Of a stretch of 64,000 nucleotides of DNA, positions 3,889 through 51,497 are shown piece by piece (within the stretch, counting starts at the first letter, position 1; each line of letters begins with the position of its first letter). The notes under the pieces were generated by a model, which had not been told where the DNA came from, did not search any database, and saw only the letters and a program-made list of their open reading frames with translations. The translations under genes and the position numbers were made by a program. Source of the DNA: Eledone cirrhosa (lineage: Eukaryota); the NCBI GenBank assembly GCA_964016885.1, contig OZ024743.1, forward strand, positions 157,480,001-157,544,000, written 5' to 3'.

Positions 3889-4072
3889 TCCAAATTCAAT
3901 AAACAGACCAGGATTTTTTCATTCTGAGGATTGAAAGCAAAATCTTTTGCTTTTAAGAAACCACTGGTAAATGGAATAATTGCCTTATTTTGTTTATTAC
4001 ATAACTATTAAGCTCTGTTACCTACATAGAGCACTCTTTTTTCCTGGACTTTTCCGACGGAATTACTTCATG
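3889..4072 (+). mobile_element. Non-coding hammerhead mini-element (PLE pLTR/retrozyme-like) in (TA)n
   Basis: ~185 bp unique segment between (TA)n tracts; contains an intact hammerhead and CATAGAGCAC at 4025-4034. Confidence 0.75.
3917..3976 (+). ncRNA. Type I hammerhead ribozyme
   Basis: ttcatt-CTGAGGA-ttgaaagcaaa/tttgcttttaa (stem II)-GAAA-ccactgg-TA-aatgga; stem I pairs; GUA cleavage triplet. Confidence 0.85.
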
Positions 4073-5291
4073 TATATATATATATATATATATATATATA
4101 TATATATATATATATATATATATATATATGTGTGTGTGTGTGTGCGTGGTTGAACGCGCGGTTTTTCTTTCATGCCGAACAGTGGTCCGCAATATGTTAT
4201 TTTTTTAAGGAATAATACATATGCTTAGAGCGTGCTGGTACTGCTGTACCTTTGCTTTACGGTAGATTGTACCTAGGTATTTGGACTCAAATCTCTATAA
4301 TGTAATCTCGCAGTTGTTGAGGAACCAAACACAAGATGCCGTCATCTTGTATTTTGGTTTCTCAATGTGCTTGTAAGTATCATCTGCCTCTCTTCACATT
4401 TAAAGCAGACACCTGGCTGTATGTTGAACATGTATTTTGTACAGATTCTTCATTTCTTAAACACTGAAGAAGTTTTAAGCTCTGGACTGAAGATCTTGTG
4501 TTTTAGATTCAATTTTGCGTACGTGCATTGATGATATATGTCTGCGAACAGATATAGAAGAATGAATGATACTACCGTCTCCTTAGAAATGTGTTGATTT
4601 TCTTTTCTAGTCAGAGCTAAACGTACCGATGACTTTTTGTATCTTTGAAACAGGTGGGGAGACTGGGAGGAGGAACAACAACGTATCAGTTGATGTAGTA
4701 GGTAGCAATAATGCATGTATCCCTAAACTGAAAACTTGCTTAAATTCTAGCAATAGTGTGGTCTAGGTTATGTATCAAAGTTTCAGGTGGGGATGGTAAA
4801 CCAGTGGAGAAATTAAAGTAGAATCAACTTTGAATAGAGTGAGACAAGTAGGAAGGGCATAAGCTGATCTTAAGGCACATCATAATTGATATAGTATAAG
4901 CTGGATTGAGCCTGTCAACTTACGCATAGAAGAACGCTCTAGGAGGAAACTCTGAATCTAAGCGATGAAACATGAATCTACTCCAGTCGAAGGATTTTCT
5001 GGTGGAAATGACAACAGCGATGCTTTCTCTACAGTTATTAAAAGCAAGATATAACCATATTACGGCGAAGTAAAGCTGACCACCTGTTGGTTTTGAAGAT
5101 AGGAAAATACTGATGAAGTTTAAATAGAAGGTTATTATAATGGTGCCTATTAAAATGTTCGGATTGAAGGTAATAAATCCTTAAATTGCTTGACTACGAA
5201 ACGTTCTCCAAAATCAGATTTACTTAAATTGTAATAGAAATTGACTATAGTAATAAACGTTATATCGATGATATAAATTTGATATTTTTAC

Positions 5292-5397
5292 CTGGTTTCT
5301 GTTTTTTAAAGATGCAAACAGGTATAGACATTTTGTGAGGTACTATCAAGTGCTGGATCACACATATCTTGTCATATGGACACATTTTGCCGTAAGC
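5292..5397 (-). CDS. Internal exon of the Kunitz gene (AYGKMCPYDKICVIQHLIVPHKMSIPVCIFKKQKP)
   Basis: ttttaacgcag acceptor, CAG|gtaaaa donor, 106 nt, open frame; phase 0->1 matches the Kunitz exon. Confidence 0.85.
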
Positions 5398-6602
5398 CTG
5401 CGTTAAAAGATAACATGGAAGAATTATGTAAAAACGGTGTGAAGGCTTACATATGAATTATTGTTATATGTAGAACGTAATAATTGATTAAGAAAATTTA
5501 ATAACAAAAGCAAGCCAAGGAGGGTGCATTTACATGTTTATTCGACCTGATAGTTATTTTCTGAATTGGGGATTGCCTTGGAATAAAAAACAGCCACAAC
5601 AACATTATTAATCTTACATATCGCTATTGTTCTGAAACCGCATTTAAACAAAAGCTTCATATATTTTGTTATGGAAGAAGGTCACACGATTTTATGACGA
5701 CACAAAAGTTTTCTGAGATATTGTTGTATTTCCGAAGAATATTGGCAGGGAATTGATTTCGTTCATGAAGAAAAGTGACGCAAGCATACTTATCACCAAG
5801 TGGATTGATGTACACTCTGGAGTTACTCATATTGGTTAGTAGACAAACAACTTAGTTGAATGATATGGTTGTGATTTGATGATAACTGAAAAAGTGACCT
5901 CATTTGTGGGTGATAATATGCTATTATCGAGAAACCCGTTTTGGAGTATGTTAAACAAACTAACTGTATGTATATAAAACAAACTAACTGTATTTCATAG
6001 TGTTCTGAATGACATACCATCACATTTCAATGTTTATATCATTTTTTGAAAGAACATAACACTTATTAAATGCCATGGAATTGTTGGAAAATATCATTTC
6101 TGTGGCTGTCTGTGTCAGTGTGTTTATGTATGTTTGCGTGTGTGTGTGTGCGCGCACGAGTATGTGTACATGAAATGTGTGCATGTGAGTGTCTATGTTG
6201 GTGATATTAACTCTTGTTAACACAATAAAAGAGACACGAGTATGAGCCCATAGTTAAGCAGCTCGCTTTACAATCTTTTGGTACCAGGTTCACACACACA
6301 ATACGATGCTTTTGGAGACAATATCTTGTACTTACCCTTAGGTTAATCCAAGCCTTAGGTGTGAAATTAAATGGACGTGCAGTAATGGATTATAGCGGTA
6401 GTACATGACCACAGTCTTATCATAGTATCTATCACATTAATTGTTGCTGAGAAGCAAATGTCCAAGTGTTTTTAGAATACACCAACACTTGCAATATGTT
6501 CTTGTGCCTAGGTAGAACCGATGAGAGATCACCTGGAAAATTCATTAGTCAAAACCTACACAAGAACCATTTACCATTACTCCTTAAAATTATTAAAGTT
6601 AC

Positions 6603-49988: not shown

Positions 49989-51285
49989 TTAAACCTGGAG
50001 CACAACCCAACGATAGTCGGACCCAGTAGCAGAATCGTGTGCTCTGGTCCACCCGTTCCATCTATCTGTGTGGGTTTTCTTGGCCATTGAGGTAATGGTA
50101 GGTGGTCTGCCTCTTGCTGGTCTTGTAGGGCACAGGTTGCTAAGGTCATATGTGTCTAGGTAACTATTACTATAGGTAAGCTTAAGTAGGAGTCCCAGCT
50201 CACTGGTATCAATCCCACGGAACTCAACCTTGCTCTCACTGATCATTTCTACGCATTTCTCCACAGCAAAATCCACGTCAATAGATGGATACAGGGACAC
50301 AACATCCATACTGCCTATTATGCAGTTTGTTAGGTCCCCAGATCGGTTACTCACGCCGATTCTGCTGAGGAGGTCCTCCGTGCTGTCACATACATCTGAG
50401 GACATTTCAATGATGGGGCGTATGATCAGGGAGAGGAAGTAGGACAGTCTGTAGTTACTAGCAATGTTAGCTCCACAGACTGGCCGTGTTGGTGGTCCCG
50501 CGACAGGATCACAGCCCGTTTTATGGTCTTTTCGAAGCCCATACAACGCCGGCACGTCAATGTTCCAGGCCTGGAAGTTGTTGGCAGTCCTTTTGTTGGG
50601 CTGCATTATATTCGTCCACATCACCATATGGGCATTGAGGGCTTTTTCTCTATCCTCATGCTCCTGTGGTGTTACCTCTCTTGTGTTAGTGATGTGGGGT
50701 TGCATTCCCTGGATGTAGTTTGGCAGGCTGTCAACCGACATTCTGCCAGACTTGTCTGTTGGAAAGCATGCTATCTCTCCATTACGTGAGCGTTGCATGA
50801 GCTTACGCAAGCCATTTGCAGACTTTTCTCCCAGTTGCTGGGCCTCCATTCTATTATGCTTCTTGCTATACTGTTGTATAATATTTCTAAGTTCGGATCT
50901 AGCTATACTAAATTGTGCTTCTGTTTGTTCATCGACCTGCGACGGCAATTGCGTGCGTTTGTTAAATGGTAAAGTCGTGCCGTGGACTCGTCGCAGGTCG
51001 AATGATTTATCGGAGGGATTATAAAACGTAGAGTTCCAGGCTGCTGCTTTATGTGTACTAGTGCTATTGTTATTGTTAGTTGTGTTTTTCTATTTCTATT
51101 TCCACCAACAGCCTCATGGTTGTTTCTATGTCTCTCATAATTACTCCTGTCTCTTTCCACTGGCTCATTGTTGTTATCTACCCTATTTTGTGCGTCTGTG
51201 TGTTCGTCTTGGTTATTTTCTTTGTCCTTAGTCTCCCTTCTCCTTTTAATCCTATTACTTTCCCTTATTTCTCTTTTTTTACCAT
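49989..51285 (-). pseudogene. Penelope-like element reverse-transcriptase fragment (possibly Nematis-like)
   Basis: TDKSG, LYGLRKDHK, PTRPV and SMDVVSLYPSI motifs; frame extends upstream (KSFDLRRVHGTTLPFNKRTQLP); truncated before the catalytic YxDD motif. Confidence 0.88.
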
Positions 51286-51320
51286 ATGTATATATATATA
51301 TATATATATATATATATATA

Positions 51321-51497
51321 CGAGTAGGACCCCGACGGCGGAGGTCAAGCCGTTTCGACGGTTAATTCTGGACGTCGAAACGGCTTGAGCTCAGCCGTCG
51401 GGTTCCTACTCGTTTCTATTGCCCACTCTACTACCCTAAGTATTGAGTACTTTGGTGCGTTATAGTCCACCTGGTTCCTTACCACATTTCTTCCGTT
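51321..51497 (+). mobile_element. Half-hammerhead fold-back mini-element
   Basis: 40-bp inverted arms 51321-51360/51373-51412; right arm GAAA-cggct/agccg-TC (GUC triplet); TATTGAGTAC at 51441-51450; (TA)n flanks. Confidence 0.75.

Follow-up and report, generated by a model that had tools for sequence, protein, structure and literature searches.

Penelope-like elements (PLEs) of the Hydra clade carry hammerhead ribozymes and prefer (TA)n targets, and one of the published examples, Hydra-1_Obim, comes from the octopus Octopus bimaculoides (Craig et al. 2021, PMC8557442). Elements of this clade have RW and DKT motifs, a CxCx5C linker, a GIY-YIG endonuclease (EN) at the C-terminus with CxxC and CxH, and a hammerhead near the 3' end. 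The same paper reports a PLE pattern of inverted, 5'-truncated copies with one-sided tails. Here we describe ten hammerhead-bearing inserts in a 64-kb window (positions 157480001-157544000) of the 3.0-Gb genome of the octopod Eledone cirrhosa, a stretch in which (TA)n and (CA)n are abundant. The inserts are named after the ten positions at which an initial annotation had placed them, and all ten are present beside (TA)n.

Several other systems resemble these inserts. Single minimal hammerheads that derive from truncated PLEs occur genome-wide, and others form opposite-strand pairs spaced by 100-700 bp (Cervera and de la Pena 2014, PMC4209133). The in vitro work on PAc, a PLE of the Poseidon type, found that both strands of AT-rich DNA are nicked, that cDNA starts at two internal sites bounding the tail, and that the hammerhead is dispensable for insertion (Frangieh et al. 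2024, PMC11167929). Metazoan non-LTR (long terminal repeat) retrozymes were argued to be non-autonomous PLE derivatives in 2020 (PMC7229834) and again in 2026 (Li et al., 10.64898/2026.07.22.740005). A curated repeat annotation of Octopus vulgaris includes 31 recently active PLE families; hammerheads and retrozymes go unmentioned in its main text.

Our analysis indicates, with a probability of roughly 85%, that separate coding PLE families, six of them of the Hydra clade, left eight of the ten inserts as 5'-truncated 3' ends, whose insertion into (TA)n likely involved an endonuclease nick and target-primed reverse transcription, and that insert 13961 is a protein-less, head-to-tail unit of 1 kb likely using a PLE enzyme in trans. 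The initial annotation had viewed the inserts as one radiation of non-coding mini-elements. That view fails for eight of the ten, which continue 5' into coding PLEs in other genomic copies and match coding elements' 3' ends at 88-99% identity. Most of this is known biology, since PLE ends with hammerheads, a (TA)n bias, inverted copies and tails have already been reported for an octopus.

Genomic copies were fetched as loci, numbered with L. In the count of (TA)n neighbors the loci of each family are best matches, except for the 20845 family, which is represented by the first 30 by position. Most fetched loci extend only 1.5 kb upstream. First-look candidate counts per family are lower bounds. 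Hammerheads were sought with a strict type-I descriptor (exact core, stem II of at most 130 nt), and the control consisted of 200 dinucleotide shuffles in 1-kb blocks. Core positions follow the standard hammerhead numbering and pairing rules.

The six inserts that appear to belong to the Hydra clade are as follows.

3889..4072, plus strand: insert 3889, 5'-truncated 3' end with a 65-nt tail, putative Hydra-clade PLE
20635..20838, plus strand: insert 20635, head-to-head palindrome with tail, putative Hydra-clade PLE, one core change per arm
20855..21019, minus strand: insert 20845, tail-less 3' end of a young, putative Hydra-clade PLE, intact hammerhead with core at 20952
31830..32272, plus strand: insert 31839, near-perfect palindrome with 180-bp arms and a 90-nt tail, young, putative Hydra-clade PLE, intact hammerheads at 31934 (minus) and 32085 (plus)
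34830..35250, plus strand: insert 34830, palindrome 34925-35250 with tail 34830-34925 (minus strand), putative Hydra-clade PLE
51314..51496, plus strand: insert 51321, mini-palindrome with tail, putative Hydra-clade PLE, 3' half of the family's U3-A8 hammerhead

Insert 3889 (family of at least 871 first-look candidates) is 98-99% identical to parents (L111, L114/L176) in which pieces of a collinear open reading frame (ORF) contain RMRWK, SDKT and CxCx5C. The 20845 family, with 7,264 exact matches to a 34-mer genome-wide (both arms counted; control, 0), has a parent, L170, with an open frame of 821 codons, and the insert is 96-99% identical to it. The structure predicted for the L170 protein has a pLDDT (per-residue model confidence) of 84, and its top three Foldseek matches are telomerase reverse transcriptases (RTs). 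A reading of the 20845 family as mini-elements whose 5' end is defined was ruled out by long copies and the intact ORF. For the 31839 family (at least 620 candidates, many 100% identical), the RT, linker and GIY-YIG domain lie about 1.6 kb upstream in L031, L037 and L113/L177. In the 20635 family (at least 1,294 candidates) the tail continues to the ORF start in L278, and EN is present in L262 and L263; in the 34830 family (at least 2,370) the CxCx5C linker and EN lie upstream in all three long copies fetched. The 51321 family (at least 3,906) has L179 as parent and long copies with the full hammerhead. It had looked hammerhead-less (0 of 143 halves with CUGANGA upstream; nothing in Rfam), and this possibility was discarded when its core proved to be of the U3-A8 form.

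The recovered ORFs contain the motifs expected of the Hydra clade. The N-terminal RT motifs read RLRWT/SDKT in L170, RMRWK/SDKT in L176 and RWRSFF/SDKT in L278, so that the RW/DKT region was recovered for the 3889, 20635 and 20845 families and not for the 31839, 34830 and 51321 families. YRDD is also among the Hydra-type motifs. The CxCx5C linker is followed by a C-terminal GIY-YIG domain with CxxC and CxH around conserved E and N in L170, L177, L179, L176 and L263, and L255-257 have the linker and the start of GIY-YIG. A CCHH motif was not seen by eye in these ORFs. The proteins of the four Hydra families compared are mutually 33-55% identical; these are separate autonomous families, which explains why the insert bodies cannot be aligned with each other.

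Compared with published Hydra-clade PLEs, the families of this window differ in number and dimensions. The 64-kb window alone has at least six families, and the copies of each number in the hundreds to thousands. Their 3' untranslated regions (UTRs) are 1.1-1.7 kb long, whereas published elements are generally below 3 kb in all; L170, with its 2.4-kb ORF and a 3' UTR of about 1.17 kb, exceeds this size, which is a tendency of the clade and not diagnostic. Tails are 65-100 nt here and 30-40 nt in published elements, and two families have a U3-A8 core. The stem III arms ACCA/UGGU with a 1-nt loop are the same in Hydra-1_Obim and in the 3889 family. Six short motifs of our families were not found in the Craig et al. 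supplement. In the 3889 family there is also a second hammerhead, a variant with G at position 17, some 290 nt past the stop codon (L111:5378-5474, L176:5007-5108), and about 1.4 kb of microsatellite-like 3' UTR separates it from the terminal one; this suggests that the element extended its 3' end.

The remaining truncated ends, and the protein-coding remnants related to them, belong to other PLE types or to an old Hydra-type end.

19312..19526, minus strand: insert 19312, 3' end of a Neptune-like PLE, minimal hammerhead variant with core at 19423
21127..21608, plus strand: insert 21127, from a PLE of unassigned clade with C-terminal EN and CX4CxxC linker: 3' UTR, tail and damaged hammerhead (core at 21362)
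21020..21126, minus strand: GIY-YIG C-terminal piece, inverted, 21127 family, 98% identical to L203
49989..51285, minus strand: PLE RT remnant, 21127 family, 94% identical to L203 over 1,235 nt
7868..8573, minus strand: insert 7830, old Hydra-type PLE end with tail and tail hairpin, U3-A8 core decayed here

In the 19312 family (at least 2,349 candidates), collinear endonuclease DNA with a CX4CxxC linker is present in 4 of 25 loci, and L217 has an RT fragment. Translations of L209, L217 and L222 have a CX2-5CxxC linker and a CCHH endonuclease after the RT; the Neptune placement is by motif only. A decayed relative of this family, 71-78% alike and with a damaged hammerhead near 34695-34725, lies at 34458-34830 (plus strand).

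The 21127 family (at least 2,197 candidates) gave Pfam matches to GIY-YIG and RVT_1, and the insert is 95% identical to the collinear element L203. It has a linker of the Neptune/Nematis form (CX2-5CxxC), but in place of DKG its motif reads TDKSG, a form absent from the Craig et al. supplement; we leave its clade unassigned. The RT remnant has its best protein match, 72% identical, in an Octopus vulgaris record. Another named protein match, in Argonauta, likewise points to an octopod host. The initial annotation had taken the RT and GIY-YIG remnants as possible helpers of the mini-elements. Both remnants are present; they are not helpers, because they are 94-98% identical to one element, L203, whose 3' UTR is the 21127 insert, and the piece at 21020-21126 goes with insert 21127 and not with insert 20845. 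Adjoining the RT remnant and a (CA)n tract, positions 49827-49990 (minus strand) contain CUGAAGA, a hairpin, and GAAC in place of GAAA, possibly another damaged PLE end. The 7830 family has at least 2,227 candidates, relatives that are 74-86% identical, and two ends. Just left of its insert, at 7334-7769, there is a palindrome with 220-bp arms and a microsatellite center, of which no further copy was present in the fetched loci.

The strict descriptor identified five intact type-I hammerheads within four inserts (3924+, 14824+, 20952-, 31934-, 32085+), compared with a mean of 0.07 and a maximum of 2 per shuffled window. In insert 3889, the core at 3924 has stem III ACCA-C-UGGU and a predicted cleavage site after 3969. 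The remaining six inserts have damaged or partial hammerheads, so that the expected mixture of intact, variant and partial motifs was borne out. Insert 34830 has U4>A in the cores of both arms; each arm of insert 20635 has a change of its own, C3>A and A6>U; insert 19312 has a mismatch in stem I and a deletion in stem II; insert 21127 has U16.1>C; insert 51321 has only the 3' half; and the 5' core of insert 7830 has decayed. Relatives mostly keep both core halves (3889, 25/25; 31839, 30/30; 34830, 21/25; 20635, 28/30; 19312, 19/24; 13961, 24/25). Stem III is short or palindromic in seven of ten families, in agreement with the early description, and is a true hairpin in 20635, 51321 and 7830. 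The U3-A8 core is used by the 51321 and 7830 families. An Rfam scan of the window returned no hammerhead among the best 150 of 246 matches, which were microsatellite-driven matches to microRNA and similar models below the gathering score.

Palindromic stem III and a U3-A8 variant, the latter described in Schistosoma, are shared with the minimal PLE hammerheads (PMC4209133). Stem II is longer in several of our families (30-100 nt, branched in 13961), and many have A-U or U-U in place of G10.1-C11.1. About ten more hammerhead families, further U3-A8 cores among them, were noticed by chance in the flanks of L001-L114 and later loci (e.g., L108, L071, L006, L099, L280 and L182).

The link to (TA)n was confirmed. 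(TA)4 occurs 43-193 nt downstream of all five intact hammerheads of the window (background, 19% of positions). Among genomic copies of nine families, the 7830 family being omitted, 231 of 237 have (TA)4 within 300 nt downstream of the hammerhead, compared with 2,363 of 5,800 random flank positions (41%). The six Hydra-clade families contributed 24/25, 30/30, 29/30, 24/24, 29/30 and 30/30 copies. The distance from hammerhead to (TA)4 mostly takes one or two discrete values per family.

Insert 13961 is of a different kind.

13961..15131, plus strand: insert 13961, ORF-less, head-to-tail, 1.17 units, consisting of a 167-bp pseudo-LTR (13961-14127) and a 1,004-bp unit (14128-15131), between two (TA)n tracts
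14819..14944, plus strand: predicted type-I hammerhead of insert 13961, stem III palindromic, stem II about 100 nt long and branched into two sub-hairpins, cleavage predicted after 14939

Its longest stop-free frame is 68 codons, and comparison with PLE proteins gave no match at E <0.3. The family has at least 2,095 first-look candidates, and a 20-mer near its end has 6,937 exact matches. All 25 best-match loci share the 3' end (one runs on to the next unit); their starts vary, all lie inside the unit sequence, and the longest copy has 1.66 units. Thirteen of the 25 have the whole unit and an identical end-to-start junction. The first 30 loci by position include subfamilies 69-98% alike (one locus without alignment), with repeat spacing of about 600-1,030 bp. 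A PLE ORF upstream was found in none of these 30 position-ordered loci and in none of 55 loci overall. Tandem hammerhead pairs occur in L314 and L336; arrays of at least two whole units were not observed, and the window copy has one hammerhead. We consider it very probable that 13961 lacks a coding parent, and it is likely a retrozyme-like, non-autonomous PLE parasite that uses a PLE enzyme in trans.

The hammerhead of 13961 was analyzed for covariation in 11 sequences chosen from 35 distinct copies with a 96.5% similarity filter. In this set, 93% of cells pair and 11 of 37 pairs are changed on both sides, with stems I, II and III included, a result matched by 0 of 500 shuffles; the structure was drawn from the same 11 sequences, which favors the covariation result. 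The hammerhead looks Hydra-like, and the element resembles the Neptune-like family in having a single end and direct repeats. Close pairs among the first 100 matches are direct in seven cases and inverted in none. This marker-based contrast misses tail-less arms. Self-alignment, which is not blind to them, upheld it, with inverted arms in 2 of 30 loci of 13961 and 19 of 30 loci of the 20845 family.

Metazoan non-LTR retrozymes (PMC7229834; 10.64898/2026.07.22.740005) share with 13961 a non-coding head-to-tail unit, apparently one type-I hammerhead per unit, low G+C content and a proposed PLE helper. They differ in that the retrozyme unit is typically about 300 nt, compared with about 1 kb for 13961; Li et al. 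list 51-972 bp from 35 genomes, with no molluscs by their taxon list, and require at least two consecutive units. Unlike retrozymes, 13961 is dispersed, with a fixed 3' end, 5' truncation, (TA)n junctions, a longest copy of less than two units and a four-way junction at stem II, and a parent pseudo-LTR was not found. The non-autonomous elements of the Chlamys type, such as MRC1 (Craig et al. 2021), are likewise non-coding PLE parasites with pseudo-LTRs and head-to-tail copies, but they are green-algal, mostly lack canonical hammerheads, and have a 3' end that resembles the autonomous partner, of which none was found for 13961. A literature search revealed no paper on an octopod element like 13961; it may sit in Dfam, Repbase or the Octopus vulgaris repeat library as an unclassified repeat. 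As an apparently non-autonomous PLE parasite with the marks of target priming, it ties retrozymes to PLE mobilization more directly than similarity alone. The reading as RNA parasites in the initial annotation fits 13961 only and not for the eight inserts with coding parents. Simple truncation of PLE families, which that annotation had named as the finding that would count against it, is what we observed for these eight and not for 13961. Likewise, eight of the other nine inserts are truncated coding elements and not, as a retrozyme would be, a non-coding unit of another kind. The link to PLEs and the three forms (monomer, greater-than-unit and palindrome) stood.

In every family the 3' end is fixed and lies 20-220 nt beyond the hammerhead, the 5' ends are ragged, and (TA)n stands at the junction. 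The Hydra-family tail (65-100 nt) is the start of the element's own 5' UTR and continues to the start-codon region in L173, L176 and L278. Close pairs among the first 100 matches listed for the 20845 family comprise 33 head-to-head, no direct and one tail-to-tail pair, and exactly one arm is tailed in 12 of 13 fetched pairs, in agreement with the published PLE pattern of truncated inverted copies and one-sided tails. PAc is alike in that two internal RT start sites define its tail and both strands of AT-rich DNA are nicked. It belongs to another clade and starts cDNA within the ORF, unlike our Hydra families, whose tail is 5' UTR and contains a hairpin common to several of them.

By analogy with these in vitro data (Frangieh 2024, PMC11167929), we propose that the PLE protein would nick both strands of AT-rich DNA and that reverse transcription would start at two internal sites flanking the tail. 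Two aborted cDNAs could then be joined head to head, giving a palindrome with one tailed and one tail-less arm. A bulged hairpin between the two start sites may be the signal recognized by the protein. Hammerheads would cut multimeric transcripts, probably as dimers with palindromic stem III, and would be dispensable for each insertion. The 34830 insert has its U4>A change in both arms, and 21 of 25 loci are without it; this is compatible with an insertion that, as in vitro, needs no active hammerhead, the alternative being later conversion between arms. In the case of 13961, the template may have been a tandem RNA or a circular one, about 1 kb in size.

PLE ends from different families frequently abut head to head, or one lies inside the (TA)n tail of another (L047, L058, L066 and window 20855-21608); priming of two RNAs at a single target, or repeated targeting, may account for this. 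A further palindrome at 17750-18205, with 200-bp arms, ends in (TA)n, and neither hammerhead nor tail was seen in it; a single arm ending at (TA)n is present in L010. It is possibly the end of another TA-targeting retroelement.

The bulged tail hairpin occurs in strict form at four sites in the window.

4012..4034, plus strand: conserved tail hairpin, RCTC-NNN..NNN-YW-GAGY-RC; also at 20779-20799, 32189-32210 and 51425-51450, and looser in the 7830 and 34830 tails

RCTC...GAGY-RC is present in the tails of all seven two-ended Hydra-type families, and was absent from the ends of the 19312 (0/20), 21127 (0/19) and 13961 (0/53) families. Matches were defined by primary sequence only. Among stem classes 30-80 nt before (TA)n, 40 of 76 pair three more bases at a 2-nt bulge, compared with 3-7 of 76 at other offsets, and 22 inner stems are represented; elsewhere the same bias is weaker (16 of 57). 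The hairpin can be discerned by eye in the published consensuses Hydra-1_Ajap (5' start), Hydra-2_Ajap and Hydra-2_Amil and in variant form in Hydra-1_Crog, and is not clear in Hydra-1_Amil and Hydra-1_Obim. We found no description of it in the consulted parts of Craig et al. 2021 (PMC8557442) or in a literature search. The tail hairpin is presented as a candidate signal for the PLE protein. Together, the conserved hairpin, the two mapped ends per family and the young intact L170 offer substrates for studying PLE priming-site choice and inverted ends.

A wider proposal is tentative, and we would not yet favor it. The genome may host a large (about 7,000 marker matches), diversified family of parasites that exist as circular RNAs of 0.6-1.0 kb, have a four-way-junction hammerhead and are copied by a PLE enzyme into (TA)n via a single priming site, while the tail hairpin of coral, sea-cucumber and octopod Hydra elements would be the recognition signal of the clade's RT/endonuclease. 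If this were true, the origin of PLE tails and inverted ends would be directly testable with L170.

Several observations weigh against the account of eight truncated coding ends and one parasitic unit, or limit it. Pfam recognized no family in any Hydra ORF and a PDB sequence search found no relative of these ORFs, so the Hydra-clade assignment of the six inserts was made from motifs and by-eye comparison with published alignments, not from a reference tree, and is to be taken as probable. The parent ORFs of 20635 and 34830 were recovered in pieces only, and no PLE ORF was found in the 20 loci of the 7830 family, leaving it without a coding parent. A rare coding parent of 13961 could be missed, because most loci are best matches that extend 1.5 kb upstream. 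Comparison of 13961 with ten autonomous loci gave no significant similarity, and a Hydra-type tail hairpin in it was not supported (0 of 53 ends), so that no particular PLE family is favored as its helper. As regards the hairpin, 100 rough shuffles (mean 0.35, maximum 4) included at least one with as many strict matches as the four of the window, and only about half of the seven tails form it under minimum-energy folding. Some of the (TA)n might arise during insertion itself. Finally, hammerhead cleavage and circular RNA are predictions made from sequence alone.

The view that all ten inserts are one radiation of non-coding, retrozyme-like minis moved by helper PLEs would account for their common layout (hammerhead, fixed 3' end and (TA)n), and 13961 is genuinely non-coding. 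The near identity of eight inserts to the 3' ends of coding elements, the ragged 5' ends, and the origin of the presumed helpers as pieces of the 21127 family make it highly improbable. A more limited idea, which we regard as rather unlikely, is that some mini-palindromes of the 51321 and 20845 type self-propagate as non-autonomous units, re-copied from the tailed end and not formed afresh. An exact junction is indeed common to 16 of 30 loci of the 51321 family, but the query spanned this junction and biased the sample; similarly, arms are 97-142 nt apart in 14 of the 33 head-to-head 20845 pairs, but the junctions vary by locus and lie close to a short self-complementary sequence, consistent with truncation at a hot spot.

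With regard to 13961, the unit might come from an unsampled coding PLE, as the long 3' UTR or the pseudo-LTR of that element, with the tandem copies of the unit being pseudo-LTR duplications. The long 3' UTRs of the Hydra elements here (1.1-1.7 kb) and the hammerhead form CUGAnGAU...UGAA, as in published Hydra hammerheads, are compatible with such an origin. It is nevertheless improbable given the whole unit with the same end-to-start junction in about half of the best-match loci, the related subfamilies with their different repeat spacings, and the failure of any of the 55 loci to run into a PLE ORF. We give very little credence to the idea that 13961 spreads from RNA to RNA in a viroid-like circular phase and that its genomic copies are a by-product. 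Greater-than-unit copies, the conserved covarying hammerhead across subfamilies and the circles formed by metazoan retrozymes (PMC7229834) would agree with it, but the window copy has no intact minus-strand hammerhead, and target-primed reverse transcription would by itself account for the (TA)n junctions, the 5' truncation and the fixed 3' end.

The window also contains features separate from these inserts. Near insert 3889, a frame at 3001-3717 (minus strand) encodes a Kunitz/BPTI domain (Pfam E 5e-20) and is probably a host exon. Fragments of other non-LTR retrotransposons occupy 26000-30600, 38600-47500, 52400-55800 and 59800-63500, one recognized by Pfam as RVT_1 and the rest from translations only. 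A 190-bp repeat resembling a short interspersed element (family D13) is present in five copies, at 13572, 22264, 24109, 51792 and 58459.

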